Shown: positions 3,907 through 29,948 of the stretch, piece by piece
How positions within the stretch are numbered: position 1 is the stretch's first letter
How the letters are laid out: each line of letters starts with the position of its first letter
Source: a virus
Lineage: Duplodnaviria > Caudoviricetes
IMG/VR virus record: IMGVR_UViG_3300032274_000034
Coordinates: 1-30,199 of that record
DNA length: 30,199 bases
Strand: one strand, 5' to 3'
Notes under the pieces: generated by a model
The model's database searches: none
What the model was told of the DNA's origin: nothing
What the model saw: only the letters and a program-made list of their open reading frames with translations
Position numbers and translations under genes: made by a program

Positions 3907-3957
3907 CGTTTTCTCTCCTGTCTGTTATTTGCGTATACGTAATATGATGACCCGGAT

Positions 3958-11165: not shown

Positions 11166-11218
11166 GACGCTCCCTTGAATCGGTGTAGCACGACACATCT
11201 TGACGTGTCGAGTTTCGG

Positions 11219-15027: not shown

Positions 15028-15580
15028 GGGGCATCCCCAGCGCCAGCATCAGCCCCGCCACCACGGCGGCCTGGTCCTGGTTTGCGTCCACCTCGTACAC
15101 GGGCAACTCCCTGGCCTTGACCAGCTGGGTGAAGTTCCAGGCCCTGGTCCGCGCCCCCTTGCGCCAGCTGACGTTCTGGCCTGTCCCCCTGGCCAGACAC
15201 CTGGCGTCCAGCTGGGCCTGGTCAGCCACCACGTGGGCCAGGCGGATGTCCGCCTGGACATGACAGCCCTGTAGCCAGTCCAGCGTGGGCCTGGTGGCCA
15301 TCCTGGCGCCGTCCAGCAGGGTGTACCTGTAGTCAGCTGCCAGGTTGTCCGCCCAGTACCTGATGGCCTCCCTGGCGCCTGAGTACGGGACGGTGTCACC
15401 ACCGTCATGGACAGCCCCGGTGTAGTGGCCCACGGCGCAGATGGAACGACCACTGGCCAGCGTCCACTTGGGGCGCTGGTTCAGGGTGTGGAACTCCCCC
15501 AACAGCCGCCTGACAGCCGTTGTCTTCCCAGCGCCTGGTGGTCCCACGATGAACAATACGATGGGCTTCCTACTCATCAT
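15011..15580 (-). CDS. P-loop nucleotide kinase-like protein
   Basis: 'IVLFIVGPPGAGKTT', 'VGHY..DGGDTV', 'LLDGARM', lid 'LDARCLARGTGQNVSWRKGARTR'; NMP-kinase-like architecture. Confidence 0.75.
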   Translation of the reverse strand: MMSRKPIVLFIVGPPGAGKTTAVRRLLGEFHTLNQRPKWTLASGRSICAVGHYTGAVHDGGDTVPYSGAREAIRYWADNLAADYRYTLLDGARMATRPTLDWLQGCHVQADIRLAHVVADQAQLDARCLARGTGQNVSWRKGARTRAWNFTQLVKARELPVYEVDANQDQAAVVAGLMLALGMPLDRQV

Positions 15581-15800
15581 CCGGCCTGTACAGGTGTGCT
15601 CTGCGACACATAGCCACAGGCTTGAAGCACTTCCCACCGTCCTTGTGAAGCCGTGAGCGGGGTTCGGCCTGGGGGCCGCGTCCGGTGAAGTTCAGGTGTC
15701 CGGCCAGGTCATGGCACAGCTGGCGCTGGGCCCACACAGGCAACCCCAGCACCCTGTTGCAGAACTCCACGTAGTCCTTGTCTGAGAAGTCATCCGGCAT
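15570..15800 (-). CDS. Hypothetical protein
   Basis: ATG at 15800 (MPDDFSDKDYVEFC...) with AAGGCGG upstream; stop overlaps the kinase start. Confidence 0.55.
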   Translation of the reverse strand: MPDDFSDKDYVEFCNRVLGLPVWAQRQLCHDLAGHLNFTGRGPQAEPRSRLHKDGGKCFKPVAMCRRAHLYRPDDE

Positions 15801-15886
15801 GTCATCCGCCTTTATCGTATACGTTAATCCATCCCAGCCACCAGGGTGTCCGCTGGGCCACCACGCACAACACGGGCCGCTGACAG

Positions 15887-16231
15887 CTACCTGACAGCCG
15901 CCAGCTTCAGGCAGAACGGAACCCAGCACCACGCCACCAGGCACAGCACCACGGCCCACGTGGGCAGCACGCCCAGCACGCGCCCCCAGAAGGGCCTGGC
16001 CGCCACCTGCTGGTCCGTGACTTCCGGCCCCATCACCACCAGGGGGCCCACCACCCAGCGCGTCCGCCATGTGCGGACCCTGGACTGGATGCTGAAGACT
16101 TGCGCCCCGCCGTCCGGCCTCGGATGGACGCCCACGCTGACCACGTCCGCCTTGGTGTAGACCTTCCCGCTGGTCACCTTCCAGCCCAGCCACAGCCAGG
16201 ACCAGGCCAGGGTGTACCCACGAATGGTCAC
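15887..16231 (-). CDS. Hypothetical membrane protein
   Basis: 114 aa with a C-terminal hydrophobic segment; GTGA overlap with the upstream gene. Confidence 0.6.
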   Translation of the reverse strand: MTIRGYTLAWSWLWLGWKVTSGKVYTKADVVSVGVHPRPDGGAQVFSIQSRVRTWRTRWVVGPLVVMGPEVTDQQVAARPFWGRVLGVLPTWAVVLCLVAWCWVPFCLKLAAVR

Positions 16232-16710
16232 AGGTTCAGCACCAGCTCTTCAGCTGGCGTCCCTTCTGGGGCTTCACGCACCAGGGCAAACCCCATCATC
16301 ACCTGGTTCTGGATGCCGCCAGTGGCCTGGTGGACAGCCAGCTGGTCAGGACTGGCCAGAACAGGCGGGGGGACAGGGACGGGGACCACCACCACGTTGA
16401 CCGTCAACGCCTTCCAGCCGTCAGCCAGCATCCGCACCAGCACGGCGTTGGCATGGGCTGACGGGGCGATAAGCGCCATCTGCTGGCGCCCCCCGCAGTC
16501 CTCCGCCGGTTTGGGCAGGTACTTTTCGCGCATGGCCCTGGCCGCCCCTTTGGCTTCTTTCTCCAGCCGCTTGCGCTGTTTCCTGTTGGGCCTGGCCTGG
16601 TCCAGCAGGGCGTCCGCCGCCTTGCCGTTGACCTTCTCTTGCAGCGCCCTGGCGGACGCTTTGGCCAGCAGGTCACCCACGGGGTTGTTGTCGTTGTTGT
16701 CGGACTGCAT
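16228..16710 (-). CDS. Hypothetical protein
   Basis: 160 aa, 'PNRKQRKRLEK' motif, ACAGGAG RBS; coupled to the TerS-like stop codon. Confidence 0.7.
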   Translation of the reverse strand: MQSDNNDNNPVGDLLAKASARALQEKVNGKAADALLDQARPNRKQRKRLEKEAKGAARAMREKYLPKPAEDCGGRQQMALIAPSAHANAVLVRMLADGWKALTVNVVVVPVPVPPPVLASPDQLAVHQATGGIQNQVMMGFALVREAPEGTPAEELVLNL

Positions 16711-17297
16711 CAGGACTCCTGTGTAGGCTTAAACGCCACGTCAATCAGCTGGGCTGGTTCCAGCCCTGCCATGTCTGCTATCTCGGGAAGGGCGGCCATC
16801 AGGTCCGCCAGCATGACCCGTGGGTCCGTGCTGCTGGCACCTTCCAGCAACACGTCCACCTTCAAGGGCTCATCCAGCCCCAGCAACTTAATCCGCAGGG
16901 CGTGCAAGTCAGCGACCACAGCGGCCATCCTGGCGTCCGGGGCTGTCCTGGTGACGATGACTTCCACTTCCCCATCATCGGCTTCATCACCTTCCGACGC
17001 CACCACCCGTTCACTGATGATGGCCCCGCCTATGGCGACTTGCGCACACGCACCCAGGAAGGCTTCCAGCTGGGCCAGGGCTTCAGCCCGCTTTGTGGTG
17101 CGGTCTGTACCCTCGAATGAGCGGCGCCAGGACTCCATGATGCTGGCCCTGTCTCGCTCAATCTGGCGGGGGGTGACGTTCCAGTGTTCGGACAGCTCAC
17201 GGCACACCTTCCGGGTCCAGCTGCCTGACAGCATCTTGAACTCAACAGCGTCCAGCCTGGCCTCCACCTGGCGCTTGGTGTGCTTGCGTCCTGCCAT
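16710..17297 (-). CDS. Putative terminase small subunit
   Basis: N-terminal HTH-like 'RKVCRELSEHWNVTPRQIERD' and C-terminal 'RIKLLGLDEPLKVDV' typical of TerS-like proteins; upstream of TerL. Confidence 0.7.
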   Translation of the reverse strand: MAGRKHTKRQVEARLDAVEFKMLSGSWTRKVCRELSEHWNVTPRQIERDRASIMESWRRSFEGTDRTTKRAEALAQLEAFLGACAQVAIGGAIISERVVASEGDEADDGEVEVIVTRTAPDARMAAVVADLHALRIKLLGLDEPLKVDVLLEGASSTDPRVMLADLMAALPEIADMAGLEPAQLIDVAFKPTQES

Positions 17298-17524
17298 CAG
17301 GGGCCGATGTTCTTCAAGGACTCACGGCCCACCCGGATGACCAGCACGATGATGACCACCATCATGATGAAGGCCAGCGCCAGGACCAGGCCGATGACCA
17401 GGGGGTCCACGTTCAACAGCTGCAACACCCCGGCTGTCAGCGCCAGGGGCAGCACCACGGCCACCCCCACGCTGAACAGGGCCGCGCTGATGTTGGCCAC
17501 CTTGCGCCGCTGGATGGGGCTCAC
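17297..17524 (-). CDS. Small two-TM membrane protein
   Basis: 75 aa with two hydrophobic stretches; overlaps both neighbours. Confidence 0.65.
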   Translation of the reverse strand: MSPIQRRKVANISAALFSVGVAVVLPLALTAGVLQLLNVDPLVIGLVLALAFIMMVVIIVLVIRVGRESLKNIGP

Positions 17525-17721
17525 GACCCACCCCCGGCATCCGTCAGCACCACCAGCTCACGGCCAGCCATGCGCCCCAGCGCCCTGATGGCTTCCGCCA
17601 CCTCTTCAGGGGTGTGGCCGTCCTGGCACACCATGTCGATGACCACGGCCAGCTGGCCCGCTGTGGCGTACTGGTACAGGGAAGCCAGGATGGCGGCCTG
17701 TTCCTTGGTGATGCTGTCCAT
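17521..17721 (-). CDS. Hypothetical protein
   Basis: 66 aa, tightly packed between neighbours. Confidence 0.65.
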   Translation of the reverse strand: MDSITKEQAAILASLYQYATAGQLAVVIDMVCQDGHTPEEVAEAIRALGRMAGRELVVLTDAGGGS

Positions 17722-17724
17722 GGT

Positions 17725-19008
17725 TCAGCCCCGCTTAGTGGTCATCGGCGGGGGGCCACCCAGGCGCGACAGCTGGCGCCTGGCGTCCGCCAGGGCCTGG
17801 TCCGTCCGCGCCATGGCGTCCGCCACCCGGTCACGGTTGTCCGTGGCCCTGGTCAGCTTGCGAGACACGGCCACCAGGTCCGCCGTGGTGGTCTTGATGT
17901 CCTGGCTGTGGCGCTGATACTCCAGCTCCTGGTTCCGGCGCTGGTCCACCAGCGCTTCAATAGTGGTGTTCAAGGTGTTGGTGTTCATGTCGGTCCTCTT
18001 CGTGACGCAGCCCAGATAGTGATAGCGCAGCGCATCCGGGGGGCCGCTGACCCCGAACGCGGCTGATGATGGCGGGTCCGCCCCGTGGTCCACAGCCAGA
18101 TACACCCCGCTGTCCAGCGTGCCCTTGAAGGCTTCTGACCAGGTCTTCAGCAGCTGGGCCGTAGTCAGCCCACCAGGGGGCTGGCTGAACTTCGTGTGGG
18201 CGTCCCTGGCCTCCAACTCGGACAGCCAGCCCATGTCAATCGGGCGCTGCTGGCGGAAGTCATGCTGGGCGCCATCCAGCCAGCGCTGGAAGTCCACCAG
18301 CTTGGTGGTGGCCTGGTCATCAAGGTGGAGTTCATAGCGGACTGGCTTGTCCAGCCACGCGGCCAGCCGTTCCTTGACTTCCGCCACGATGGCGCCGGGG
18401 TCCGTGGGGGGCTCTTCATCGAACCACACCACGAACTCAGGGCCGCCAGGCGGAACCACGGCCTGGTCCAGCGTCTTGAAGCGAATGTGACAGCCTGGCG
18501 CCTGGTCATCGTCCGGCGCCGGGGGCAGGGCTTCACCAGGGGTCCGGTTCAGGGCCTGGTTCAGCGTGTCCATGGCGTCACCCACCAGGCCGTCCGTGTC
18601 CAGGGCGTCATCAAAGGACGCCAGGCTGTCCAGGGCGTCCATCACGTCCGTCTGGACCCCCACCAGGCAGTCCAGCACATCTTCCCTGGTGGGCGGGTCC
18701 ACGTAGTCCGCCAGGCTGAAGGGCCTGACCGTCCGGCTGACCGGGGTTCCGGTCACCCACTCAGGCGGGATACCCAGCGGGGGCTTGACGTGGTCGCCAG
18801 GCTTCCAGCTGGGCGGGTTCTCCATGGGGGCCACCTGCCACGTGGCGCCCCGTTCAGGGTGGGCCGCGTCTATGGTGCCCCCGCCTCGGATGACGTACCA
18901 GCCTGGCCTGGTGCCATCCAGGTACAACACGGCGCCCTGTTGGTGGGGCTGGAAGTCCTGCTGGTACACGATGGACTGGCCGAAGTAGTAGCGCGCTGTG
19001 AGAGTCAT
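17725..19008 (-). CDS. Multi-segment hypothetical protein (possible separate C-terminal coiled-coil product from ATG 17988)
   Basis: ATG at 19008 overlaps the upstream TGA; internal in-frame ATG at 17988 has a GAGGA RBS. Confidence 0.6.
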   Translation of the reverse strand: MTLTARYYFGQSIVYQQDFQPHQQGAVLYLDGTRPGWYVIRGGGTIDAAHPERGATWQVAPMENPPSWKPGDHVKPPLGIPPEWVTGTPVSRTVRPFSLADYVDPPTREDVLDCLVGVQTDVMDALDSLASFDDALDTDGLVGDAMDTLNQALNRTPGEALPPAPDDDQAPGCHIRFKTLDQAVVPPGGPEFVVWFDEEPPTDPGAIVAEVKERLAAWLDKPVRYELHLDDQATTKLVDFQRWLDGAQHDFRQQRPIDMGWLSELEARDAHTKFSQPPGGLTTAQLLKTWSEAFKGTLDSGVYLAVDHGADPPSSAAFGVSGPPDALRYHYLGCVTKRTDMNTNTLNTTIEALVDQRRNQELEYQRHSQDIKTTTADLVAVSRKLTRATDNRDRVADAMARTDQALADARRQLSRLGGPPPMTTKRG

Positions 19009-19256
19009 CAGTCCGCCAGATGCGCGGCCCTGAGACCGTCCACAGCACTGCCCAGCAACTTCAGCGTGGTCACAGCCTGGACCTTGACCGGTTTGCCATC
19101 GACGTTGACGGTGAAGCTGATGACCACAGCGGGATTCCCCCCCGTGGTTGCGTACGGCTTGCTGGCAATGGCCAGGTCTCCACACTCAGGAACACCAGAA
19201 TGTACAGCCGCGTCAAAGGCCCCCGAATTGTTGGGGTTCAACTTGATTCCTTCCAT
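19008..19256 (-). CDS. Hypothetical protein
   Basis: 82 aa, ACAGGAAGA upstream. Confidence 0.7.
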   Translation of the reverse strand: MEGIKLNPNNSGAFDAAVHSGVPECGDLAIASKPYATTGGNPAVVISFTVNVDGKPVKVQAVTTLKLLGSAVDGLRAAHLAD

Positions 19257-19798
19257 CGTTTCTTCCTGTGCTTTGAAGCGTTAGGGCAGTCAGCGAAGTG
19301 GGACAGGAACGTGGGGCGCAGCAGGGCGCGCACCCTGGTGGGGTCTGGATGGCCGCCAGGGAAGCGGACCCACCTGTCTTCACGGGTCGCCAGGGACAGG
19401 GGCATGGGACGCCCTGATGACGGGGTGGCGCCCCGCTTGTACGTGGTGCCCCAGATGATGCCAGCCCCGCAGGACTCACAGCTGGCCGTGTCCCCCAACT
19501 TGGGCCTGGCCCCCTGTTGGGGTTCCGTCCCTGTTTCCGTCCCTGATGGACAGTCATGCGCGCTGAAGGTGGGCACCCTGGTGGTCATCCACTCGCCTGG
19601 CCGCCCCACCAGCACCCAGCGCCACGTGGCGGTCAGCACGTCCAGCGCCACCCCGTCACCCTGGTACACCTTGCCCCCGTGGGCCTTGCCCACCAGGACA
19701 GGGACATCCGCCCTGATGACCGGCATGTCACAGCCCTTGCATGGCCGCCCAGTAGCGGCCAGGGCCTGGACAGCCCTGTCCCTGGCGTTGCGTGTCAT
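19238..19798 (-). CDS. Protein with two tandem CxxC...H..C zinc-finger-like units
   Basis: 'CKGC...AHDCP' and 'CESCGAGIIW...GRPMPL...SHFADCP'; GACAGGAGAG RBS at 19807-19816. Confidence 0.75.
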   Translation of the reverse strand: MTRNARDRAVQALAATGRPCKGCDMPVIRADVPVLVGKAHGGKVYQGDGVALDVLTATWRWVLVGRPGEWMTTRVPTFSAHDCPSGTETGTEPQQGARPKLGDTASCESCGAGIIWGTTYKRGATPSSGRPMPLSLATREDRWVRFPGGHPDPTRVRALLRPTFLSHFADCPNASKHRKKRWKESS

Positions 19799-19828
19799 CC
19801 GCGTTCCTCTCCTGTCGCGCGAGACATA

Positions 19829-19857
19829 GATATGTCATGCAAGGAAGCCCCTGTCAA
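19829..19857 (-). promoter_or_regulatory. Putative leftward promoter
   Basis: Perfect TTGACA (complement at 19852-19857), 17 nt spacer, then CATATC overlapping the palindrome GACATA-GA-TATGTC. The -10 match is poor. Confidence 0.45.
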
Positions 19858-19900
19858 CGTGACCCTGGCGCCACCAGGTCCAGGCCAGTACACTGGTCAC

Positions 19901-20030
19901 GGTTCGCGGTCCTTTGTACTCTCCTGTCGGGGGTCGCGGGCCACGGCCCAGCCAGGACGCGCCGCAACTTCCTGGCTGGGCCACCATCATGGGGCTGGGT
20001 GGCTGGTGGGCCGCCCAGCCCCAACTTTTT
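19901..20030 (+). ncRNA. Candidate three-hairpin small RNA with anti-RBS loop
   Basis: TACACT at 19889-19894. Stem 1 19901-19914/19929-19942 (14 bp, 6 G-U). Stem 2 19945-19957/19970-19982 (13 bp perfect). Stem 3 19990-20003/20010-20023 followed by ACTTTTT. Confidence 0.6.
19990..20030 (+). terminator. Intrinsic terminator
   Basis: 14-bp GC-rich stem followed by ACTTTTT. Confidence 0.75.
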
Positions 20031-20109
20031 GGGGTCCAGTCTTCACACACGCCCATCTGGCGCTACTGGTGTGTGTCGGCGCTGATGCCGACCTTGACGG
20101 GAGAATCCC

Positions 20110-20310
20110 ATGTCTGAAGAGCTGAAGGCCCTGGCGGCCACCCTGGTGGATGTTGAGTGCAAGTTGCGGGCCCTGGCCGGGAAGGCTGGTCGGGGGCCCA
20201 TGGGGCTGGCGCTGAACGCCAGCGCCACCAGCCTGTGGAGCGTCCGCGCTGGCCTGGTGGCGCTGGCCGCCGGGGGGTCCGCCGGTCAGCCGTGCATCCC
20301 GCCCAGCTGA
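20110..20310 (+). CDS. Small hypothetical protein (only plausible plus-strand gene)
   Basis: GACGGGAGA RBS at 20096-20104 preceded by hairpin GTCGGC-N6-GCCGAC; GC3-biased codons; sits in a gap between minus-strand genes. Confidence 0.6.
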   Translation: MSEELKALAATLVDVECKLRALAGKAGRGPMGLALNASATSLWSVRAGLVALAAGGSAGQPCIPPS

Positions 20311-20311
20311 C

Positions 20312-20340
20312 TTGACCGTCCTGTGGACCTGGTGTACAAC
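20312..20340 (+). promoter_or_regulatory. Putative sigma70-type promoter
   Basis: TTGACC-N17-TACAAC. Confidence 0.55.
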
Positions 20341-20439
20341 ACCTGGGACTCAGCGGTCACCATGCCGCATAGCCAGCGTCATCTTAGTCGAGGTGGGAAG
20401 GCGCCATATCCCATAGACTGGCGGAAACAGGGTGATTCA

Positions 20440-20465
20440 GGCCCCGCATCCTTTGATGCGGGGCC
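20440..20465. terminator. Hairpin terminator between convergent units
   Basis: GGCCCCGCATC-cttt-GATGCGGGGCC, about 10 nt beyond the stop of 20475..20747. Confidence 0.65.
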
Positions 20466-20474
20466 GTCTTACGT

Positions 20475-20747
20475 TCAGATGGAAGAGCCGAACAGCCCCG
20501 CCTTGTCGATGGCCACATACTGGGCCACGGCGTCCCACTTGTCCCTGATGTTCTGGGGCAGGTCTTCCCACATGGGGCAGGGCTCACCCCGGAAGTTCAG
20601 TCCCGCCGTGTCCGGGTCTCCCCCCGAGTTGTAGGCGGCATACAGGGCCGCCCCGTGGCCGTTGTCCGGGTTGTGGTAGCAGCAGGGCGGATAGCTGCCC
20701 CCGGCTTCCTGGCTGGCCAGCTCTTCAAACCGCTTGCCGGTCTTCAT
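20475..20747 (-). CDS. Hypothetical phage protein
   Basis: 'LYAAYN..GLNFRGEPCPMWEDLPQNIRDKW' resembles a common small phage family; ACAGGAGAG RBS. Confidence 0.75.
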   Translation of the reverse strand: MKTGKRFEELASQEAGGSYPPCCYHNPDNGHGAALYAAYNSGGDPDTAGLNFRGEPCPMWEDLPQNIRDKWDAVAQYVAIDKAGLFGSSI

Positions 20748-20808
20748 GGTCACTCTCCTGTTGGTGTCCGCCTATACGTAGCATCAGACGCCAGAAGTGT
20801 GTGGTTTT

Positions 20809-21144
20809 CTACTTGGGCAGACGGCTGGCCAGCAGCTGGGCCCTGACCTTCCGGCGTTCAGCTCTCAGCATCAGCCGGACCAGCATCCAGTACGGGGGCA
20901 GGCCATCAGGGGCCGGGGCGCCTTCCAGCACCATGGCCACGATACGGATGAAGGGGGCCAGGGTCCGCCGCTTGCGCCACACGGCTTTCTTGCACGCTTC
21001 GGAACACGTGCTGGGCGGCTGGCCACCCTGTGGGCCCGTGGTCATCCTGGCGCCGCAACGCAGGCACAAGCTGACCGTGGGCTGGTCATCGTGGCCCAGC
21101 ACCAGGTCCGCGTCCTGTAGTGGGGCTGTCTCGCTGAAGTTCAT
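20809..21144 (-). CDS. Zinc-ribbon protein
   Basis: 'CLRCG...GQPPSTCSEACKKAVWRKRR'; GACAGGAGA RBS. Confidence 0.75.
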   Translation of the reverse strand: MNFSETAPLQDADLVLGHDDQPTVSLCLRCGARMTTGPQGGQPPSTCSEACKKAVWRKRRTLAPFIRIVAMVLEGAPAPDGLPPYWMLVRLMLRAERRKVRAQLLASRLPK

Positions 21145-21749
21145 GGTGTGTCTCCTGTCTCACGTGGTGGGTCATCCCCCAGCTGGCACCACTCGCACAC
21201 GGTGATGCAGCCTTCACAGGGGACAGCTGGCCCACAGCCATGGTGTTTCATGTACCAGTCCGCCAGCTTGATGCAGCGCCAGGCCCAGCGGATGGCGCCG
21301 TCCGACTTGAAGCCGTTGTGGCCCTGCTGGGACTCGGAAGCGGCCACCACCAGGTCATACGCTTCCCCCCAGCTCCCGGCCCTGTGGTCCGAGTAGAACG
21401 CCCCACAGCCATAGCAGCGCTGGGCATCCACCCAGCCGCCTGGCGCGCTGGGTTCTGGGATGCGTCCGTTGACGGCCATCCCTGACCAGCGCCGCTTCCT
21501 GGCCACGGTGGCTTCAAACACCTGGCGCGCTGGAAGGCTGACTGTCCAGGTCTGGACATCCCCCCGCCGGGGGGGCGGGATGTTCAGCGCCCCCAGCTTC
21601 TCACCCATCAGCGCGCTGATGCGCACCGTGGTCCGCGACTTCCCCAGCCTAATGGGCAGCTCCACAAACGGGACAGCGGCCCGCTGGTCATTCACCAGCA
21701 AGGCCACCAGCTCACCCAGCGTCCGCGCGCTGCCCCACGGCCTGGCCAT
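21141..21749 (-). CDS. Cys-rich hypothetical protein
   Basis: CYGC, HHGC, CEGC, CEWC; coupled to both neighbours. Confidence 0.7.
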   Translation of the reverse strand: MARPWGSARTLGELVALLVNDQRAAVPFVELPIRLGKSRTTVRISALMGEKLGALNIPPPRRGDVQTWTVSLPARQVFEATVARKRRWSGMAVNGRIPEPSAPGGWVDAQRCYGCGAFYSDHRAGSWGEAYDLVVAASESQQGHNGFKSDGAIRWAWRCIKLADWYMKHHGCGPAVPCEGCITVCEWCQLGDDPPRETGDTP

Positions 21750-22387
21750 CAGGCCAACTCATCGGGGGGCTTGGGGGTCCAGGCGGTCATGGCGTCCGCC
21801 AGGCGCAGCTTGTCCGGGTCCGGCGCCGGGTCAGCCAGCGGGGGCCTGGCCTTCACTCCGTGCCCCATCAGCGCCCTGGCGGCCCTGTGGGCTTCCTGGT
21901 GGCCCGCTTCAAAGGCGCCGCTGATGGCCATGATGTCACGCAGCGCGTCCGCAGCTGACAGCCCGTTCCGGGGCAGCTTGCAGACAGGGGCAGGTGGGTC
22001 ACCAGGCGCAAACACCCACCAGGCGCTGGCCGTCACCTTCACGTGACACTTCCAGCGGATGCACAGCCGGACCAGGGCCTGGTGGGGCAGTGGGTCCAAC
22101 TGGTCCACCAGGTGGTACTGGACCAGGGCCTGGTCAGGGCCATCCGGCTGACTGACCACCAGGGGCGCCGGGGTGGTGTCGCTGATGTCGGGGTCCGTGT
22201 CGGTATCCGCATCAATAAACGTATACGTAAACCCCAAGTCAGTGGCGGGGGCTTCCGCCGGGTCAAAGAGCGGGGGCCGGGGCTCCACAGGCTGCGTGAT
22301 GGCCGGGGGCCGGGGCGGCTGGCGGGGCGGCTGGGCGCACCAGGTCAGCAGGGCCCACAGGCCACGGATGGCGTTGATGAACATCAT
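21749..22387 (-). CDS. Hypothetical protein
   Basis: 212 aa, Pro-rich N-terminus, coupled to the downstream gene. Confidence 0.65.
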   Translation of the reverse strand: MMFINAIRGLWALLTWCAQPPRQPPRPPAITQPVEPRPPLFDPAEAPATDLGFTYTFIDADTDTDPDISDTTPAPLVVSQPDGPDQALVQYHLVDQLDPLPHQALVRLCIRWKCHVKVTASAWWVFAPGDPPAPVCKLPRNGLSAADALRDIMAISGAFEAGHQEAHRAARALMGHGVKARPPLADPAPDPDKLRLADAMTAWTPKPPDELA

Positions 22388-22391
22388 GGGG

Positions 22392-22703
22392 TCACTCGGT
22401 GGGTTGGTAGTTGATACAGGCTGGCATGGTGGCGCGGACCAGCACCAGGTCCACGGCCAGGCACAGGATGGGCTTACCCACCTGGCGCCTGGCGCACGTA
22501 CCGCAACGCGAGCGGGCCGCCTTGGTGCCCTGGTCCGGCATGGGCTGGCCCGTGGGATGCAGACCCCTGGCGATATTCACCAGGTGGCCGCTGGGCAGAC
22601 CGGCGCCAAAGGGGTGGGGCTTGCGCTTCACCGGGGCCTTGCCGGACCTGGCGCCACACATCAGGCACCCAGCCCCACGGCAGAACAGGCAGGGGTCAGA
22701 CAT
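22392..22703 (-). CDS. Cys-rich hypothetical protein
   Basis: Start at the ATG overlapping the upstream TGA; 'CLFC..CLMC', 'CGTC..C..C'. Confidence 0.65.
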   Translation of the reverse strand: MSDPCLFCRGAGCLMCGARSGKAPVKRKPHPFGAGLPSGHLVNIARGLHPTGQPMPDQGTKAARSRCGTCARRQVGKPILCLAVDLVLVRATMPACINYQPTE

Positions 22704-23005
22704 CAGCTGGCCTTGTCGTGGTAGGACCAGATGATGGGCGGCCCCCACGCCACGCGGTACCGTTTGGCGTTGTTCTTCATCACGGCGGACAGCGTGGCGT
22801 CAGGCCCGTGCATAGCCAGGATGTCCCCTGCTTCCAGCGGGCCCCGCGTCCGCGCCACCACCACATGCAACAGCCGGGGCATCCTGGTGGGCACCTTGCG
22901 CTTGCTGGCCGTGGTCTCATCGTCATACACGCAGCGCACCCACACGTTGGGCTTCTCACGCTTGCGCTTCGGCTTGCTGTAGTCGCCAGGCAACTTGTCA
23001 GACAT
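22703..23005 (-). CDS. Hypothetical basic protein
   Basis: 100 aa, GAGGAG RBS. Confidence 0.7.
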   Translation of the reverse strand: MSDKLPGDYSKPKRKREKPNVWVRCVYDDETTASKRKVPTRMPRLLHVVVARTRGPLEAGDILAMHGPDATLSAVMKNNAKRYRVAWGPPIIWSYHDKAS

Positions 23006-23008
23006 GGT

Positions 23009-23710
23009 CTACTCCTCTTCCTTGGGGGTGCCTTCCAGCGTGTGGGTGTGGGTGACCAGCGCCTTGCCCACGTCCAGCAGGGTGACCGCCACCACCTGGC
23101 CGTCCGCCAGGTCCAGGCGCAGCAGGTTGCTGCGCTGGTTCACGGCCACGCTGGCCACGCTGGCCTGGCCGCCCATGACCAGGTCCGCCAGGGCCGTGGG
23201 CTTCATCAGGGGCAGGGGGTCCGGGTACCCGGACCAGCTGGGCCAGTAGTCGCCGGGGTAGTAGTCCCCCGGCTCCAGCCACGCGTCCGGGTTGTCCACC
23301 ACCTTGTCATCCGTGGGGTGGACCACCAGCAGGGACAGCGGCATGTCCGCCGGGTCATGGACCATGTGGTGACCCACCTGGCCCACCTGGTACGTGTCCA
23401 GGGCGCCGTCCGCCGGGTTGGGGATGTGGATGTACTCATCCACGCGGGGCAGCTGGGCCACCAGCATGTTGGCCTGACCCATCAGAGCCATGGTGTCCCT
23501 GTCGCGAGCGTGGACCATCACCGGGATGGACGTAGTGGCCGCCAGGGCCTTGAAGTAGCTGGCCGCGTTCAGCAGGTTGCGCAGGTCCGCCAGGTCCACA
23601 GCGCCTTCCCAGCTGGCTTCACCAGACGCCAGGGCGTCCAGCTTGCTGACCAGGGCTTCCGCCGCGTCAAGGGCTTCCGCCGCGTCCGCGTAGTTCATCA
23701 GTCTTGACAT
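23009..23710 (-). CDS. Hypothetical protein
   Basis: ATG at 23710 after GACAGGAGA (MSRLMNYADAAE...). Confidence 0.75.
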   Translation of the reverse strand: MSRLMNYADAAEALDAAEALVSKLDALASGEASWEGAVDLADLRNLLNAASYFKALAATTSIPVMVHARDRDTMALMGQANMLVAQLPRVDEYIHIPNPADGALDTYQVGQVGHHMVHDPADMPLSLLVVHPTDDKVVDNPDAWLEPGDYYPGDYWPSWSGYPDPLPLMKPTALADLVMGGQASVASVAVNQRSNLLRLDLADGQVVAVTLLDVGKALVTHTHTLEGTPKEEE

Positions 23711-23738
23711 GTCTATCTCCTGTCGAATGAAGTCCCGC

Positions 23739-23755
23739 TGGCGCCATATGCACCA
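23739..23755. promoter_or_regulatory. 17-bp operator-like palindrome
   Basis: TGGCGC-CATAT-GCACCA; member of the TKGYRC-N5-GYACMA family. Confidence 0.55.
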
Positions 23756-23777
23756 GCGGGCCGGGGTTGTCTGTCTG

Positions 23778-24701
23778 CTAATCGCTGTCGTGCTTGAACA
23801 GGGCCGCCACGGCGTCCATGGTGGCCAGCTTGTTGGCTGAGTTCGGGATGGGGTGGCCCCCGGCGCTGGCCACGCTCTTGGTGGTGCGCATGTCCAGGCC
23901 CTGGCACACCTTCCAGACGCCACGGTGGCCACCACACACCACGGCAGCACGGCGCCAGGCGGCCCACACCTGGTCAGGGGTGCCCCCTCTCAGGAGCTTC
24001 CCGGCCTCCATGGGGTCATTGTCAGCCAGCGCCCTGGCGGCCCTGGCGGTAAGGGGTTCGGCGTTCAGGACTTCAAGGTCCGTCTTCCCGTCCACCAGAC
24101 AGGCAAGCCAGCCGGGGGGCTCCAGCGGCCCCGTGGTGTCCACCAGGGACCGGGCAGCGGCCCCGAACGCGGCCGGGGCATCCCCACCCCGCTGGGCCGC
24201 CTCGGACATCCCCTTGACCGCCTGGTCCAGCCTGGCCCTGGCCGCCAGCATGTCCGGCGGGGCCGGGGGGCCGTCAGGGACCACGCTGTCCGCCCCGGAC
24301 GTGGCGGCATCAGCCAGGGCCAGCTGGGCCTGGCGCCATTCGCGGATGCACTCCAGCTTCAGCAGGGCCGCTTCCACCCTGGCCCTGTACACGCCCTGGT
24401 AAGCCATCACGGCGGGGCGGCTCTCACACAGGGCGTCCAGCTCCAGCCAGCTGACCAGGCGCAGCCTGGTGCTGCGCCGGTTGAACAGGTTGACCAGCAA
24501 GCGCTGGGTGGGGCCGTACGCCGTACCCACGGCCAGGCCCCGCCAGCTCTCCAGCGGGCCCCGCCCACCCAGCTTCACTTCCAGGGGCAGCTGGGTGTTG
24601 TCCGTGGTCTCCACCAAAGCCGTGTCCGCCGTGCTGGTGCTGATGTTCTCCTGGTTCCACTTCCCCTTCAAGATGGTGGGGGTGACCGCTGGCATGACCA
24701 T
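23778..24701 (-). CDS. Hypothetical protein
   Basis: ATG at 24701 after GACAGGAGAG (MVMPAVTPTILKGKW...). Confidence 0.75.
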   Translation of the reverse strand: MVMPAVTPTILKGKWNQENISTSTADTALVETTDNTQLPLEVKLGGRGPLESWRGLAVGTAYGPTQRLLVNLFNRRSTRLRLVSWLELDALCESRPAVMAYQGVYRARVEAALLKLECIREWRQAQLALADAATSGADSVVPDGPPAPPDMLAARARLDQAVKGMSEAAQRGGDAPAAFGAAARSLVDTTGPLEPPGWLACLVDGKTDLEVLNAEPLTARAARALADNDPMEAGKLLRGGTPDQVWAAWRRAAVVCGGHRGVWKVCQGLDMRTTKSVASAGGHPIPNSANKLATMDAVAALFKHDSD

Positions 24702-24738
24702 GATATCTCTCCTGTCGTTGTTGATGTCCGCCCATCTA

Positions 24739-24755
24739 TGGTGCATCACGCACCA
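24739..24755. promoter_or_regulatory. 17-bp operator-like palindrome
   Basis: TGGTGC-ATCAC-GCACCA with perfect arms. Confidence 0.6.
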
Positions 24756-24757
24756 CG

Positions 24758-25327
24758 TCACGTCAACTCACACCAGATACCGCAGGGCTGGTCCGTCACC
24801 CAGATGCCGCTGTCATCCTGGGTGAAGTGGAGCGGCCCGCAGTCATACCCCGGCGGGTCCGGCCAGTCCGGGGTCCAGCACAGCCACAGCACGGTGGTCC
24901 GTTGCAGGGGCGCTTCACGCCAGGCGCTGGGACACGGCGCGTGAAGGGCCTGGCCCCTGGTGATGCTGCTACAACGCGCCCACGTCTCAGCATCCGCCAC
25001 GGACCCACTGGGGGGCCACCAGGTCCACGGGTCGTCACCATCACCACCTGGGGGCTTCCGGCGGAAGGTTGGAGCCAGGTACCTGGCCACCAGGTGGGGT
25101 TCCGGCCAGGGTGGACCCCACGGGAACTTCTTACGGGCCAGCTGGCCGTTGGCCCTGGCCCAGCGCTTGAAGACCCCCAGCCAGACCGTCAGGGCCGCCA
25201 GCACTGCGTCCGAGTCAACGCCCTGGAACGCATAGTCCCAGCTGGCCGCCTCTCTTGACATGTCCAGGCTGTCCGGGGGCCGATGACCAGCAGCACGCAG
25301 CGCCTGGAACAGCTTCTGAGCACTCAC
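24758..25327 (-). CDS. Possible helicase loader/inhibitor-like protein
   Basis: N-terminus 'SWDYAFQGVDSDAVLAALTVWL...PWPEP' resembles SPP1 G39P/lambda P-like loaders; two genes downstream of the initiator. Confidence 0.45.
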   Translation of the reverse strand: MSAQKLFQALRAAGHRPPDSLDMSREAASWDYAFQGVDSDAVLAALTVWLGVFKRWARANGQLARKKFPWGPPWPEPHLVARYLAPTFRRKPPGGDGDDPWTWWPPSGSVADAETWARCSSITRGQALHAPCPSAWREAPLQRTTVLWLCWTPDWPDPPGYDCGPLHFTQDDSGIWVTDQPCGIWCELT

Positions 25328-25611
25328 GGTGTCACCTCGTACCCAGCGTCCAGCAGGGCCTGGCGCGCGTCCGCCCAGCGCATGGGCATCCGCACCAGGC
25401 GCACCCCGGACTCATCGGCCAGCCTGGCCGCCTGGCGCAGCTGGGGCGTGCTGGTGGCGAACACCAGCACCAGGGTGACCCCCGGCGGAACCTTCCGGCG
25501 CACCGTGGTCCAGTGGTCCACCACGACCAGGTCAGCGACCTGGCTGGTCTGGCGCATGATGCGCAAGCGGGGCCTGTGGTGTCCTCCAACGGTCAGAACT
25601 CGAATCGTCAT
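25324..25611 (-). CDS. Hypothetical protein
   Basis: 95 aa alpha/beta pattern; GACAGGAGAG RBS. Confidence 0.7.
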   Translation of the reverse strand: MTIRVLTVGGHHRPRLRIMRQTSQVADLVVVDHWTTVRRKVPPGVTLVLVFATSTPQLRQAARLADESGVRLVRMPMRWADARQALLDAGYEVTP

Positions 25612-25644
25612 GCTCTCTCTCCTGTCATGGCCCTGGTGGGGGCC
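25608..25644. repeat. 37-bp dispersed direct repeat, copy 1
   Basis: TCATGCTCTCTCTCCTGTCATGGCCCTGGTGGGGGCC; 36/37 identical to 29912-29948. Confidence 0.9.
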
Positions 25645-25647
25645 TGG

Positions 25648-26433
25648 TCAATCAAGGGGGTAGTCATCCCAGCCGCTGGGCGCGCCGTCCGCCGGGGCCT
25701 GGTCAGGCACCACGCTGGCCGCCCCCTCTTCAGCGGCTTCCAGGTACTTCACGAAGTTGCCGGGGGACAGCCAGTTTTCAGGGGCCGTGTAGCCCTGCTC
25801 TCTCAGCCACTGGGCGTTCCTGGCGGGGCTGGTCAGCACGTATTTGACCACCACCAGAACCGAGTCTGGCCCGTGTTCATCGATGCGCGCGCCCAGCGCC
25901 TTGCGCCGAACTTCAGGAAGGCGCAGCGCCCTGGCGCCTGGCACCACGGACTTGCGGAAGGTGTTCACCTGGTCCCACACCAGCTTCATCTGGACCAGGC
26001 GCTGGGCTTGCCCAGCTCTCTTGTTCTTCCTGTTGCTGTTGTCTGTTCTTGTTGGTGTTCTTGTTAACTCCGCGCCCACGGTGGGTGATTTTTGGGCGGA
26101 TGGTGGGGGAGTTTGGGCGCCAGTGGCAGGTGAACCCCCTGTAATCACAGGGTCAGGTTGGGCGGATTTTGGCGTGGCGCTGTCAGGCTTTTGGGCGAAC
26201 CAGTCAGCCAGGTCCGACTTGACCCGCTCCAACAGCTTGCGCGCCCTGTGGCGCTTCCAGCCCAGCCTGTCCGCCAGCTCACGGCTGGGCGTGGGGACTC
26301 CCTGGCGGATGTCTTCCCACGTCACCAGGTACGCCACCAGGTCCGGCGCCGGGTTGTCCGGCGTCCACCTGGTCCTGTCTGCCTGGCGTATTAGGTCGGC
26401 TGGGCCAGGGGCCCATGTCCAGTCAACTGCCAT
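25648..26433 (-). CDS. Phage replication initiator (replisome organizer)
   Basis: N-terminal HTH 'PSRELADRLGWKRHRARKLL', low-complexity linker, C-terminal 'RRKALGARIDEHG..WL..PENWLSPGNFVKYLE'; RBS before the ATG at 26433. Confidence 0.8.
   Translation of the reverse strand: MAVDWTWAPGPADLIRQADRTRWTPDNPAPDLVAYLVTWEDIRQGVPTPSRELADRLGWKRHRARKLLERVKSDLADWFAQKPDSATPKSAQPDPVITGGSPATGAQTPPPSAQKSPTVGAELTRTPTRTDNSNRKNKRAGQAQRLVQMKLVWDQVNTFRKSVVPGARALRLPEVRRKALGARIDEHGPDSVLVVVKYVLTSPARNAQWLREQGYTAPENWLSPGNFVKYLEAAEEGAASVVPDQAPADGAPSGWDDYPLD
26020..26197. repeat. Iteron-like repeats and T-rich tract (probable replication origin)
   Basis: TTGGGCG at 26092, 26113, 26158 and 26191 plus TTTGGCG at 26168; adjacent T-rich tract 26020-26068; all inside the initiator linker. 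Confidence 0.6.
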
Positions 26434-26456
26434 CTGGGTGTCTCCTGTCCCGTGGC

Positions 26457-26473
26457 TTGTACCACATGCACCA
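26457..26473. promoter_or_regulatory. 17-bp operator-like palindrome
   Basis: TTGTAC-CACAT-GCACCA upstream of the initiator RBS. Confidence 0.55.
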
Positions 26474-26501
26474 GGGGGCGCGCCACCCCCTGCTGTTAGC
26501 G

Positions 26502-26762
26502 TCACTCCATGGCGGCCAGCTCATCCACCAGGTCCAGCTGGTCCGGGTTGGTGGCCGGGGGCTTGGTGGCCGGGGGATACCAGTCATCCAGACCCACCTG
26601 GCCGCCTGTCCTGTCTCGGATGTCCGCCATCATGGCGCCCCCCGGCTTGCGCTTGTCGTAGTACAGGCTGGTGAACGTGTCGTAGGCAAGGCCCAGGTCA
26701 TCGGCCAGCTGGGCCAGGGTGGGCTTGGGGTCCAGGGTCTCATGGTAGTCACGCAGCTTCAT
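26502..26762 (-). CDS. Cro-like helix-turn-helix regulator
   Basis: 'TLAQLADDLGLAYDTFTSLYYDKRKP..MADIRDRTGGQVGLDDW' is a typical Cro/Xre pattern. Confidence 0.82.
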   Translation of the reverse strand: MKLRDYHETLDPKPTLAQLADDLGLAYDTFTSLYYDKRKPGGAMMADIRDRTGGQVGLDDWYPPATKPPATNPDQLDLVDELAAME

Positions 26763-26877
26763 GGCTGTTCTCCTGTCAGCGCCCCGTCAGGGGCTTGGTT
26801 CAAGTTCTAAGGGTCAGGGCAGGGGGCAAGACCAGCGGCGCCAGCTGTGGGCGCCTGGCGGCCAGCGCGGGCCGTTT

Positions 26878-27444
26878 TCAGGCTGCGCTGTCCGGGTCAT
26901 CGTCCGGCACCACCAGGAACGGACTGGGTGGCATGGTGGGCCGTCCGCCGGACTCCGGGGGCAACACAGGCACCCTGAGAGGGGGCGGGGGCTGGGTGGG
27001 CGGCATGGACTCACGGCCAGGCAGGTAGCCGCGCACCAGGTGGAGCCTGGCCGGGTCCACCGTCTCTTCCCGGCTGTTGCTGGTGCCCACGGGGGCTTTC
27101 TGGAATCCGGGGATGATGATGTCCCTGGCCCCCACGGGGACAGACCCGTCACAGTAGTACACCACCCGGTCATGAGTGCCCGTCGGGTCCATGATGGCCA
27201 GCCTGGCCTTGGTGGGCTGGTCCGACCACAGCCGCCTGACAGGGACACGGTGGCCCCTGGCGACATGCCAGAACCCATCACGGGTCAGCTCCACCTGGGC
27301 CAGCCAGGGGGCGCCGCTGGACACCATCCAGGGGCAGGGGGCCACGCGGACCCCCAGGTAAATCAGGCCGTCAGCCGGGGCCACGGTATCCATGGCGGAC
27401 AGCAGGTGTTCCACCAGGTCATTCAGCACCATCAACTCAATCAC
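26878..27444 (-). CDS. Hypothetical protein
   Basis: GTG at 27444 after ACAGGAGAG; Pro-rich C-terminus. Confidence 0.65.
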   Translation of the reverse strand: MIELMVLNDLVEHLLSAMDTVAPADGLIYLGVRVAPCPWMVSSGAPWLAQVELTRDGFWHVARGHRVPVRRLWSDQPTKARLAIMDPTGTHDRVVYYCDGSVPVGARDIIIPGFQKAPVGTSNSREETVDPARLHLVRGYLPGRESMPPTQPPPPLRVPVLPPESGGRPTMPPSPFLVVPDDDPDSAA

Positions 27445-27459
27445 GGGGTCTCTCCTGTT

Positions 27460-27483
27460 TGGTACGTGATGCACAACGTACAA
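27460..27483. promoter_or_regulatory. Operator-like palindrome(s)
   Basis: TGGTAC-GTGAT-GCACAA (27460-27476) overlapped by TGATGC-ACAAC-GTACAA (27467-27483). Confidence 0.55.
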
Positions 27484-27511
27484 CACCCTGGCCGTTGTGG
27501 CCAGGGTGTTG
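27481..27511 (-). terminator. 13-bp perfect hairpin after the DUF932-like gene
   Basis: CAACACCCTGGCC-gttgt-GGCCAGGGTGTTG. Confidence 0.6.
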
Positions 27512-27541
27512 GTGGTCGCGGGCGGTCAGCGGGTCAGCGGG

Positions 27542-28909
27542 TCAGCTGTCCAGCGCCACGGGGGGCGCCACCCGCAGGACGCGCCCCGTGGGGGTGGCCT
27601 CGGAACGGTTCAGGCCGTGGTCCATCAGCTTGCTGGCGGCCCGCTCCATGGCTTGCTGGACATAGATGTCCGGGTGAAGCTGGGACGCCCTGGTCACGGC
27701 GTCCGTCACCCCGGCCAGGGTGTTGATGTCCGCCAGGGTGTCATGGCCCAGCAGGTTGGTGGCCGTGGCCACCTGGTGGTCCGTGAGCCCCACGGCCTTG
27801 CTGTTCTCCCCCAGCCACTGGGCCGCGAAACTGGCGCCGCTGGCCAGGCTGTCCGAGACAAGGCCGTCAATCGCCACATCCAGCGCCGCGTTGTACTTGT
27901 CCACCAGGCCAGTGGAGTACACGCGGGCCTGGTCCAGCGCCCCCTTGACGCCCCGGCGGATGCGCTCCGTGTTCCCGCTGTGGCGCCAGTCCCAGCGGCT
28001 GTCAGTGGTCCAGCCCACCATCCCGTTGGTACAGATGAGGGTCCACATGCCAGCGTGAAGCCCCACACCCCGGCAAGCCGTCTCACTGTTCCAGGCTTCC
28101 ACCATGGGGATGGGCTTCCCGACTTCCGGCGCCTGGCCCCGCTTGAACTTGGGGTCCAGTGAGAACCGGACCCGCATCCCGTCATCCGTCCTGTGGTACG
28201 CCACCACGGCCATGTTGCGGACATCCGGGTCCGCCAGCATGTCCGTGATGAAGGCCAGGTCATCATACAGGCTGTAGGACTGGGACATCACGGCGCGGAC
28301 CATCACGGCCCGCTGGCCGCCGGGGTCCGCCGGGTCCACCACGTTGACCAGACGCAGCATCATGGGGGTCTGGCCGTGGGTCTGCACCAGTTTGGCCAGG
28401 CTGGCCGTGGCAATCTGAGCCCCCTTGTCATCGATGCTGGCCAGCCGTTCCAGCATGGCCCTTGCGGACAGCCCACGGCCCACCAGACTGCACAGCTGGG
28501 ACAGGGCCCGCTTGCTGACCAGCTGGCCAACCCCCAGCCGGGGCACCCCGCTGACCATCTGCCAGCGCTGGGCGGACATCCGGCCACGGGCCAGGCCAGC
28601 GTTGCCGTTGTAGCTGAAGTGGAACAGGGGCAGCGCCACCTCAACTTCACGGGGGTCTTCCAGCTTCACCCTGGCCGCCACGTCATCGTACACGTCACCC
28701 AGCGTGAGCGGGGCCCACTCGGCGCGCGGCATGTCGTAGCGCGACAGGACGCGCGGACGGACGGTGAAGGGGGCCCAGCTGTCCGGGGCCTGGTCATCCT
28801 GGCGCCGCTGGTTCTGGTCATCGTCAGCCAGGACCAGGCCGGGGTTGATGATGACGCCAGGGCGCCGGGTAGTCAGCGCCTGGCTGGGGGACATGGTGGT
28901 GTCAGACAT
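27542..28909 (-). CDS. DUF932-family protein
   Basis: 'VRAVMSQSY', 'AWNSETACRGVGLHAGMWTLICTNGMV..WRHSG', 'DAVTRASQ' match the DUF932-like signature; GACAGGAGAG RBS before the ATG at 28909. Confidence 0.8.
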   Translation of the reverse strand: MSDTTMSPSQALTTRRPGVIINPGLVLADDDQNQRRQDDQAPDSWAPFTVRPRVLSRYDMPRAEWAPLTLGDVYDDVAARVKLEDPREVEVALPLFHFSYNGNAGLARGRMSAQRWQMVSGVPRLGVGQLVSKRALSQLCSLVGRGLSARAMLERLASIDDKGAQIATASLAKLVQTHGQTPMMLRLVNVVDPADPGGQRAVMVRAVMSQSYSLYDDLAFITDMLADPDVRNMAVVAYHRTDDGMRVRFSLDPKFKRGQAPEVGKPIPMVEAWNSETACRGVGLHAGMWTLICTNGMVGWTTDSRWDWRHSGNTERIRRGVKGALDQARVYSTGLVDKYNAALDVAIDGLVSDSLASGASFAAQWLGENSKAVGLTDHQVATATNLLGHDTLADINTLAGVTDAVTRASQLHPDIYVQQAMERAASKLMDHGLNRSEATPTGRVLRVAPPVALDS

Positions 28910-28948
28910 GGTGTGTTCTCTCCTGTCCCCGGCTACAGCGCCGGGGTG

Positions 28949-28984
28949 CTGTACAGGTAGTACACAGCGCACCCAGCCGTCAAC
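28949..28984 (-). promoter_or_regulatory. Putative promoter with overlapping operator-like sites
   Basis: TTGACG on the minus strand near 28978-28983; CTGTAC-N5-GTACAC (28949-28965) and TAGTAC-N5-GCACCC (28958-28974). Confidence 0.45.
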
Positions 28985-29091
28985 CCCTTCCGCCTGCTAT
29001 GCGGTCAGCTTCTGGCGCCCATGTTTCCGCATACGCAAACGGCCCCGCCGGTCAGGGCGGGGCCGTGGGGTGGCTGGGGTGGCTGGGGCGG

Positions 29092-29592
29092 TCAGCGGGG
29101 CAGCTGGCCCCGGCTCAAAATCTCCATGATGCGCGCCAGCATCAGGCGCCGCTGGGTGGCCGTGGCGCCCATGTAGGCTTCCGTCACAGGCGCCAGGTGG
29201 GCCACCAGCTGGTCCTGGCTGGCGTCCTTGCGCCTGGCCAGGGCCAGACTGTGGCAGTCCTTGTCGGCCCAGTGGGTGGCCGTCCACTCAGCCGCCAGGG
29301 CCTGGTCCACTCGGACCCCGGTGAACGTGGGCACCTTCTCACCCCCGTACACCACGGCGCCGCTGTCCACATCCACGTGGACCGTGTACACCTGGCCGAT
29401 GCCAGCGCCGCTCACGATGGGCTTCCCGGCCCACAGGTAGCTGTGGGCCTTGTCCCACTTGGGCCCCATCGGCTGGCCGTCAGCGTCCACACGGACCCAC
29501 AGCTGGGCCAGCTTGCTGCGCCCCTTGGTGACCAGCTGGCGCTGTCCAGCGTACGCCAGGGGCGTGGGCTGGTAGTTCTTGGCGCCGCTCAC
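29092..29592 (-). CDS. Hypothetical protein
   Basis: 166 aa, GTGA overlap with the upstream gene. Confidence 0.7.
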   Translation of the reverse strand: MSGAKNYQPTPLAYAGQRQLVTKGRSKLAQLWVRVDADGQPMGPKWDKAHSYLWAGKPIVSGAGIGQVYTVHVDVDSGAVVYGGEKVPTFTGVRVDQALAAEWTATHWADKDCHSLALARRKDASQDQLVAHLAPVTEAYMGATATQRRLMLARIMEILSRGQLPR

Positions 29593-29915
29593 GCGACACC
29601 CAGCGCAGCCATCAGGCTGAAGGCCATGGCCCTGATGACCTCCAAGCGCTTACGGTTCTTCGTGCGCAGCTGACTGCCCCCGCTGGCCAGACTACCCAGC
29701 CTGGCCATGTCGTGGACCGTCATCTGTCCCAGCATGGCTTCAGCGAGTTCAAGCCGCTGGGCCGGGTCAAGGCGGACCCTGACAGCCGTAACAGCGGCGC
29801 CCATCTGGGTGGTGATGACCACCTCCGAACCGTCAATGACCATGTAGCCGTCCGCAGCCGCATCCGGCTCCATGCCCGGCGCCCTGGTCAGCCTGTACTT
29901 GATGTCCAACATCAT
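29589..29915 (-). CDS. Hypothetical protein
   Basis: ATG at 29915 after GACAGGAGAA-type RBS (GACAGGAGAG at 29921-29930); MMLDIKYRL... Confidence 0.7.
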   Translation of the reverse strand: MMLDIKYRLTRAPGMEPDAAADGYMVIDGSEVVITTQMGAAVTAVRVRLDPAQRLELAEAMLGQMTVHDMARLGSLASGGSQLRTKNRKRLEVIRAMAFSLMAALGVA

Positions 29916-29948
29916 GCTTTCTCTCCTGTCATGGCCCTGGTGGGGGCC
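29912..29948. repeat. 37-bp dispersed direct repeat, copy 2
   Basis: TCATGCTTTCTCTCCTGTCATGGCCCTGGTGGGGGCC. Confidence 0.9.

Follow-up and report, generated by a model that had tools for sequence, protein, structure and literature searches.

A predicted phage small RNA presents, in a hairpin loop, the complement of a ribosome-binding motif found at 12 gene starts

The DNA analysed here, referred to as the window, is the whole 30,199-nucleotide stretch of a Caudoviricetes virus record, and its features are collected in Table 1. Almost all genes at 19008-30175 are without a family, and homologues in relatives were found for three of them. The element of interest lies on the nearly gene-free plus strand, bounded on one side by the minus-strand gene that starts at 19798 and on the other by a plus-strand ORF at 20110. 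The runs listed for the region include no RNA run. One contig of run X1 (possibly the source of the window DNA) is identical to the window over 12000-20626, and no variant was found in the element in the DNA contigs of runs X1 and X2, the latter spanning only 19934-20084 of it. In both runs a joint leads from 27186 back to 26911, possibly a short repeat or a genome end. A terminase relative with 51% identity and the same structural module (L132) sits in a contig of an Acidimicrobiaceae genome bin, which is a weak host hint at best because the binning may be wrong.

Table 1. Coordinates of the element, its predicted targets and neighbouring features in the window, with the Adephagia hairpin for comparison
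Feature	Position	Strand	Remarks
Window	30,199 bases		Virus record, 84% complete; sequence present in two microbial-mat DNA runs
Terminase, portal, protease, capsid, connector and tail genes	834-15027	-	Every gene in this orientation
Sole full motif copy in the structural module	3914..3922	-	Gene starting 3906, tail region, upstream of the tape-measure gene
Target RBS motif of the gene starting 19798	19807..19816	-	Cofold gain -7.7, largest among five leaders tested
TTGACA of a divergent promoter-like site	19852..19857	-	Before the gene at 19798, towards the packaging genes; from sequence
-10-like hexamer TACACT	19889..19894	+	Without -35 and without TG extension; from sequence
Predicted small RNA, ~130 nt	19901..20030	+	Extent inferred, with the -10 box and the U-tract as markers
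Hairpin 1, G-U-rich	19901..19942	+	14 bp including six G-U, 14-nt loop
Anti-RBS seed CUCUCCUGUCG	19919..19929	+	Complement of the phage RBS motif; UCUCCU is the predicted open loop
Hairpin 2	19945..19982	+	13 perfect bp, strand-neutral, z -5.2; relatives' units without counterpart
Hairpin 3 and U-tract, intrinsic-terminator-like	19990..20030	+	Hairpin 19990-20023, 15 bp, 2 G-U; from terminator scan
66-aa ORF	20110..20310	+	Downstream of the terminator; gene-like codon score +0.23
Ten more start-linked motif copies	20754, 21151, 23716, 24708, 25618	-	Non-structural region (20754..29929)
Ten more start-linked motif copies, continued	26441, 26769, 27451, 28919, 29922	-	Non-structural region
Adephagia anti-SAS hairpin	L183:30660-30725 = record 58659-58724

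Folding of the element as a whole favours the plus strand (-89.4 kcal/mol, z -5.9) over the minus (-74.4 kcal/mol, z -4.4), and on the plus strand, as the initial annotation had described, TACACT precedes three hairpins, the last of them a terminator with a U-tract, here five T at 20026-20030. The first stem likewise has the length, wobble content and loop size first given for it, and in the predicted fold it closes further, to 17 bp around a 6-nt loop UCUCCU at 19920-19925 whose unpaired probability is at least 0.99; opening the whole 10-mer in hairpin 1 costs 4.3 kcal/mol. In line with the earlier description of this stem as a plus-strand one, hairpin 1 is stronger on the plus strand than on the minus (-23.0 against -12.9 kcal/mol; taken alone, z -3.1 against -1.6). 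Hairpin 3 also prefers the plus strand (-34.7 against -28.6), and hairpin 2 shows no preference.

The earlier description gave the unit a weak -35. At 17-nt spacing from TACACT stands TGGCGC, which is no -35 at all, and a promoter scan of 15000-30199 listed zero sites. The hexamer falls within an inverted repeat, CCAGT-AC-ACTGG (19885-19896), and lies 31 nt from the divergent TTGACA. Three promoter-like -10 regions in the neighbourhood are each set within such a short inverted repeat, the other two being GACATA-GA-TATGTC (19824-19837) and GGTGT-ACA-ACACC (20334-20346), and the repeats are possible operators. At the other end of the unit, CCCCAA-CTTT-TTGGGG (20020-20035) would form an alternative hairpin over the terminator 3' arm and the U-tract, which could permit read-through into the gene at 20110.

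ORFs overlapping the element have codon scores of -0.15 to -0.34, which are non-coding values when set beside four real small genes (+0.03 to +0.40). A comparison with the Rfam covariance models returned 0 matches in the whole window at the gathering threshold, the best sub-threshold match being asX1 with 30.4 bits against the 70 needed. Of the features by which a trans-acting base-pairing sRNA is recognised, the element has a non-coding, stable structure ending in a terminator and, by prediction, an accessible seed complementary to initiation regions; of a promoter it has the -10 only.

Positions 19919-19928 are the complement of the RBS motif at 12 gene starts, 11 of them non-structural. TCTCCTGT occurs 13 times in the window, always on the plus strand, against an expectation of 0.69, and 12 of these copies, read in reverse complement, give a motif that precedes a start codon by 5-9 nt; at six of the starts the motif is exactly GACAGGAGAG, and at the other six it gives 9-nt matches. 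Only the copy at 19920 has no start codon at the spacing of an RBS, so that the counts of the initial annotation, including its single orphan, were borne out. All but one of the start-linked copies (11/12) lie within 19798-29915. Pairing with the 16S tail leaves the bases flanking GGAG in the motif unaccounted for. Two of the leaders, at 25608-25657 and 29912-29961, share a 50-nt stretch with 88% identity, and this likeness suggests that leader cassettes have been copied.

Predicted targets were ranked over 42 hand-picked start regions by duplex energy plus opening costs, with sRNA windows of up to 16 nt (two of the starts, 15033 and 11168, were placed a few bases off). Eleven of the 13 best predicted targets among these 42 carry the full motif, with net energies of -9.0 to -15.2 kcal/mol, and the twelfth motif-bearing start (26433) reaches -6.4 kcal/mol. 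The gene at 20110, which is probably real, had been put forward as a further target, and its RBS GACGGGAGA can indeed pair with the seed through one G-U; a longer duplex (-33.5) can also be drawn. Nevertheless, it ranks only 20 of 42 and its cofold gain is 0, the RBS being taken up by pairing within the gene's own start region (0.6-0.8 in the read-through RNA, against about 0.1 for the loop), and our modelling indicates that it is probably not a main target. No family was found for its protein, for which an Atlas search gave scores under 0.8 only, and no homologue of the gene was found in 149 terminase-linked loci. For these reasons we regard it as very improbable that the element is a leader or antitoxin-like RNA controlling this plus-strand gene and nothing else, and the type I toxin-antitoxin pattern is likewise not seen, the adjacent gene being a poor predicted target.

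Single-protein scans found no close relative of the phage, and neither scanning viral contigs for exact 18-nt matches nor a blastn search of annotated phages found anything. Relatives were gathered through a terminase alignment of 20 proteins, which led to 149 loci besides the window's own, with 19 viral records taken whole; the best terminase identity is 56%, for several of the nearest relatives by terminase the available upstream DNA is too short, and there is no nucleotide similarity to the element across these loci. A first scan that required the anti-RBS within a loop missed the relatives' units because most of them carry it between hairpins. Listing strong hairpins revealed a unit that recurs immediately upstream of a RusA-like gene, in the orientation opposite to the genes. 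It begins with a TAnnnT box and a short hairpin, followed by a pyrimidine tract and a terminator-like hairpin, usually with a T-rich tail. Besides the window's there are 15 comparable units, 14 upstream of a RusA-like gene and one in G001, and two of the 15 are weak examples (G006, L038). In the initial set the unit was present in 9/9 distinct RusA lineages with upstream DNA (one further locus was incomplete), and further RusA-linked units were found in G004 and L182.

In G001, the closest complete relative, the unit is divergent from the promoter of the small terminase gene (terS), carries the seed in the loop and has the same back-to-back layout, with TTGACA 30 nt from the -10 where the window has 31 nt; its U-tract is absent. 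In the 14 other relatives the unit is flanked within an operon by RusA on one side and, upstream, by a gene that is Gam-like or of another kind. The window has no RusA match, and its element differs from the RusA-linked units in having an extra hairpin and in holding the seed in the loop, as G001 does, whereas theirs lies between two hairpins; with the tail included, the tract is predicted to be mostly paired in G004, L079 and L047. In several RusA-linked units (L042:2740-2846, L047:3722-3835 and L070:3705-3816, minus strand) bases that follow the terminator are complementary to the 3' half of the tract and can pair with it (CTG with CAG, CGTG with CACG), a possible switch that would make seed access dependent on the 3' end.

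A TAnnnT box occurs at the equivalent place in 16/16 units, against a chance of 0.01-0.08 per 9-nt window, with the units having been anchored on this box. The -10 has a TG extension in 11/16, and G at -14 is missing from the window's alone among the 16. In 15/16 the fold of the antisense strand is the more stable one. On the gene strand the copy is not followed by a conserved start codon: among 12 units checked, five have no start codon within 20 nt after the GGA, and the other seven vary in offset and ORF length. As a hold-out check, seven loci were taken later through a replication-gene alignment, after the pattern had been defined: an automatic descriptor found the unit in 1/7, and reading the DNA upstream of RusA found it in 4/7 (L215, L216, L218 and L219, three lineages). 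The remaining loci, L213, L217 and L220, have no unit upstream of RusA and have another gene order. In RusA loci of other phage groups the unit was found in 0/9, among the matches listed.

Run over 58 sequences with 1,301 sites, the descriptor gave 15 matches, 10 of them on nine units, namely the window element and eight relatives' units, and five in the background. This background, and the window GC of 66%, at which hairpins are common, are what speaks for mere chance, in which a pyrimidine run would have arisen by accident at a terminator of GC-rich DNA. We find this barely credible in view of z-scores of -3 to -7, a 10-nt exact match placed in the only large gap, and the recurrence in relatives. 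A covariance model (R1) was built from 12 RusA-linked units and is weak, with only 4 base pairs; the 14 places it found are all training members or near copies, and it missed G001, L038, G006 and the window, with no match to the window at E up to 5. We therefore describe the window element as the same kind of unit and make no claim of homology. The consensus that RNAalifold derived from MAFFT alignments of the divergent units was poor and was set aside, and pair-level covariation is therefore not claimed for the relatives' units. Also discarded was a 20-nt match between window 20389-20408 and G001-type loci, which lies antisense to coding sequence and was judged to be chance.

In these units the tract follows the local RBS. 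It matches ACACGGAG in G004, L079 and L047, CACAGGAGGACA in L042, AACAGGAGG in L118, CACAGGAGA in G008 and L070, GACAGGAGC in G001, CGACAGGGAGC in L218 and GACAGGAGAG in the window. In a seed-by-genome matrix with a first definition of the seeds (12 genomes), the diagonal was reached in 0/100,000 permutations, and with lineage representatives in 2-3 of 40,320 (eight) or 1-2 of 120 (five). With a second definition the corresponding figures are 0/100,000 for 15 genomes, without L182, whose sequence is too short, and for nine lineages 2 of 362,880. These numbers are to be read with seed patterns that were defined by hand and tuned after the sequences had been seen, with genes called by a crude rule, and with kin that share both seed and RBS, relatedness being treated only by the choice of lineage representatives. 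A genome's own seed ranks first or second in 9/15 genomes and poorly in L047 (12th), G006 (14th), L216 and L091. A sister group (G003, G005, L085 and L077) has another standardised RBS, AAGGAGCGAC, and no anti-RBS unit was found in it; G003, which is 97% complete, has 10 start-linked AAGGAGCGA-type sites, and G005 has its standardised RBS at eight starts.

Such RBSs without a partner unit favour a reading in which the gene strand is the functional one, the orphan GACAGGAGAG being a protein site or decoy, or the relic RBS of a lost gene or of a 21-codon ORF, and the co-variation reflecting a shared protein specificity or copying between leaders. The context of the orphan does resemble the neighbouring 19798 leader, with a GTG (19900) 18 nt downstream and AAAGGA 9 nt before this GTG, and the motif contains ANGGA, the CsrA-type core. 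However, the -10 boxes, U-tracts and G-U pairs indicate the opposite strand, and the 21-codon ORF scores as non-coding (-0.23, outside the range of the four real small genes). Furthermore, the orphan copies of L216 and L218 have lost GGAG itself and yet pair through G-U. All three differences between orphan copy and RBS consensus (3/3) are A for G, which fits antisense pairing via G-U and, with three cases, is only suggestive. Overall, we consider a functional gene strand quite improbable.

A real plus-strand RNA could also act in cis, on a minus-strand transcript reading through the locus in the manner of OOP, or could pair with the RBS motifs to stabilise, process or activate messages. In 14 relatives the unit is inside an operon and would therefore be fully complementary to any transcript running through it, and in the window read-through is possible too, since on the minus strand no U-tract follows the hairpin at 20440-20465; moreover, the sign of regulation is not readable from the sequence. 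On the other hand, the tract follows distant RBSs, a match that pairing in cis would not require, and pairing directly over GGAG represses in known cases such as c4 RNA, as described in the cited passages (PMC12197685). An RNA of this kind is in our judgement unlikely.

We consider it probable that the element is a stand-alone trans-acting RNA that blocks translation of an RBS-defined, mostly non-structural gene set. Since the loop complements the RBS of 12 genes and the relatives' units follow their own RBS, a joint turn-down of genes is likely. What is established is the sequence, its predicted fold, the agreement with 12 start-linked motifs and the way in which the relatives' tract follows the local RBS; from these we infer the following mechanism. 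The RNA would be made from TACACT, and its loop UCUCCU would nucleate on AGGAGA, whereupon the pairing would extend to 9-11 bp over ACAGGAGAG. The resulting duplex would compete with the 30S subunit and so block ribosome loading on motif-bearing messages, and the bases flanking GGAG would give selectivity for phage over host messages. The trans-acting RNA of the initial annotation thus gains from the relatives' 15 units and from the leading rank of RBS-bearing genes among the targets, and loses two of its proposed parts, the control of 20110 and a role in immunity. The latter is not favoured because no tyrosine integrase is present in 8/8 near-complete relatives, a check that covered tyrosine integrases; the window itself is 84% complete.

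RsaE, RNAIII and GcvB are host multi-target sRNAs with C-rich loops that act on G-rich initiation regions. The element resembles the small phage RNAs c4 (P1/P7), P22 sar and lambda OOP in its predicted pairing with phage mRNA, and c4 is described as acting at and near the RBS through complementary stretches that probably sit in loops, as far as the cited passages go (PMC12197685). As presented there, c4, sar and OOP control one locus each (ant or cII), whereas the window has its predicted target motif before 12 genes. In 6C RNA, too, a pyrimidine-rich loop pairs with the G-rich initiation regions of many messages, according to the sections cited (PMC6486639). These host sRNAs are chromosomal with heterogeneous targets, in contrast to the standardised targets of the window and a seed that differs between phages together with the RBS. 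The T4 endoribonuclease RegB silences a class of early messages at GGAG in Shine-Dalgarno regions, but in the passages cited it is a protein nuclease working with ribosomal protein S1 and no RNA guide, so that the analogy is functional only (PMC3014915). Judged by its modelled structure and pairing, the element would work like the loop-seeded antisense RNAs c4 and 6C, outside any Rfam family, and we found no description in the open-licence literature of a phage RNA matched to a phage-wide RBS.

A close parallel is the start-associated sequence (SAS) of cluster K mycobacteriophages, in whose description, in the parts cited, the question of an RNA or a protein binder is left open and one opposite-orientation SAS site is given for each of four K1 phages (PMC3203893). 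In both systems an over-conserved RBS occurs phage-wide, mostly before non-structural genes, with one copy off the starts, as far as the cited descriptions extend; the sequence and the host are unrelated, the cluster K consensus being GGGATAGGAGCCC and the window motif GACAGGAGAG. Cluster K also has 17-bp ESAS inverted repeats. The opposite-orientation site of Adephagia lies in the 92-93 gap, in the predicted 10-nt open loop of a long hairpin, and reads anti-SAS, CCUCCUAUCC. In the relevant passages of a later study, late transcription appears to begin in this same gap and the role of SAS is given as not known (PMC11373665). The Adephagia loop is on the gene strand, in the late leader, whereas the window has a terminated unit on the opposite strand.

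Among 14 cluster K phages examined, the loop is exact in 4, variant in 3 and absent in 7; TM4, Pixie and Marshawn have no reverse SAS copy genome-wide, and in Amohnition and Bryler the loop has drifted and the SAS has not. In the seven loop-bearing phages, which were chosen for the loop, 92.9% of stem cells pair and three pairs change on both sides. The main text of an SAS survey of 188 genomes is without the terms "antisense", "hairpin" and "small RNA" (PMC12699233), and a similar unexplained motif is reported, in the passages cited, for Microbacterium cluster EF (PMC7302621). In the cited portions of the cluster K papers, SAS function is left open and the hairpin is not proposed as its partner (PMC3203893, PMC11373665, PMC12699233).

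Because the unit stands back-to-back with a promoter towards the packaging genes and has this parallel in Adephagia, a turn-down of early genes suggests itself: early protein synthesis might be reduced when the genes for packaging and structure are switched on. We guess at this timing from analogy with Adephagia and T4 RegB, and a simple early shut-off fits imperfectly, one target being in the tail region and another being the divergent gene at 19798. More generally, phages might standardise their RBS beyond what 16S pairing needs and encode one sRNA with a co-evolving seed, giving a protein-free, RNA-addressed regulon; we advance this tentatively and lean slightly towards doubt. If true, one short RNA and a shared RBS address would control a whole gene class, as an RNA counterpart of T4 RegB, and this would explain why some phages keep over-conserved RBS motifs, including the cluster K SAS, open since 2011, by way of the K1 late-leader anti-SAS loop. 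Naturally co-varying seed/RBS pairs would then supply translational control with orthogonal parts.

Another possible small RNA lies at 20314-20470 on the plus strand, where TTGACC-17-TACAAC is followed by a stretch of weak structure (z -2.1). At 20440-20465 comes a hairpin of 11 perfect bp, and after it GTCTTACGTT. No anti-RBS tract, Rfam match or conserved copy was found for this candidate, and a duplex of -12 kcal/mol can be drawn between it and the loop of the first RNA.
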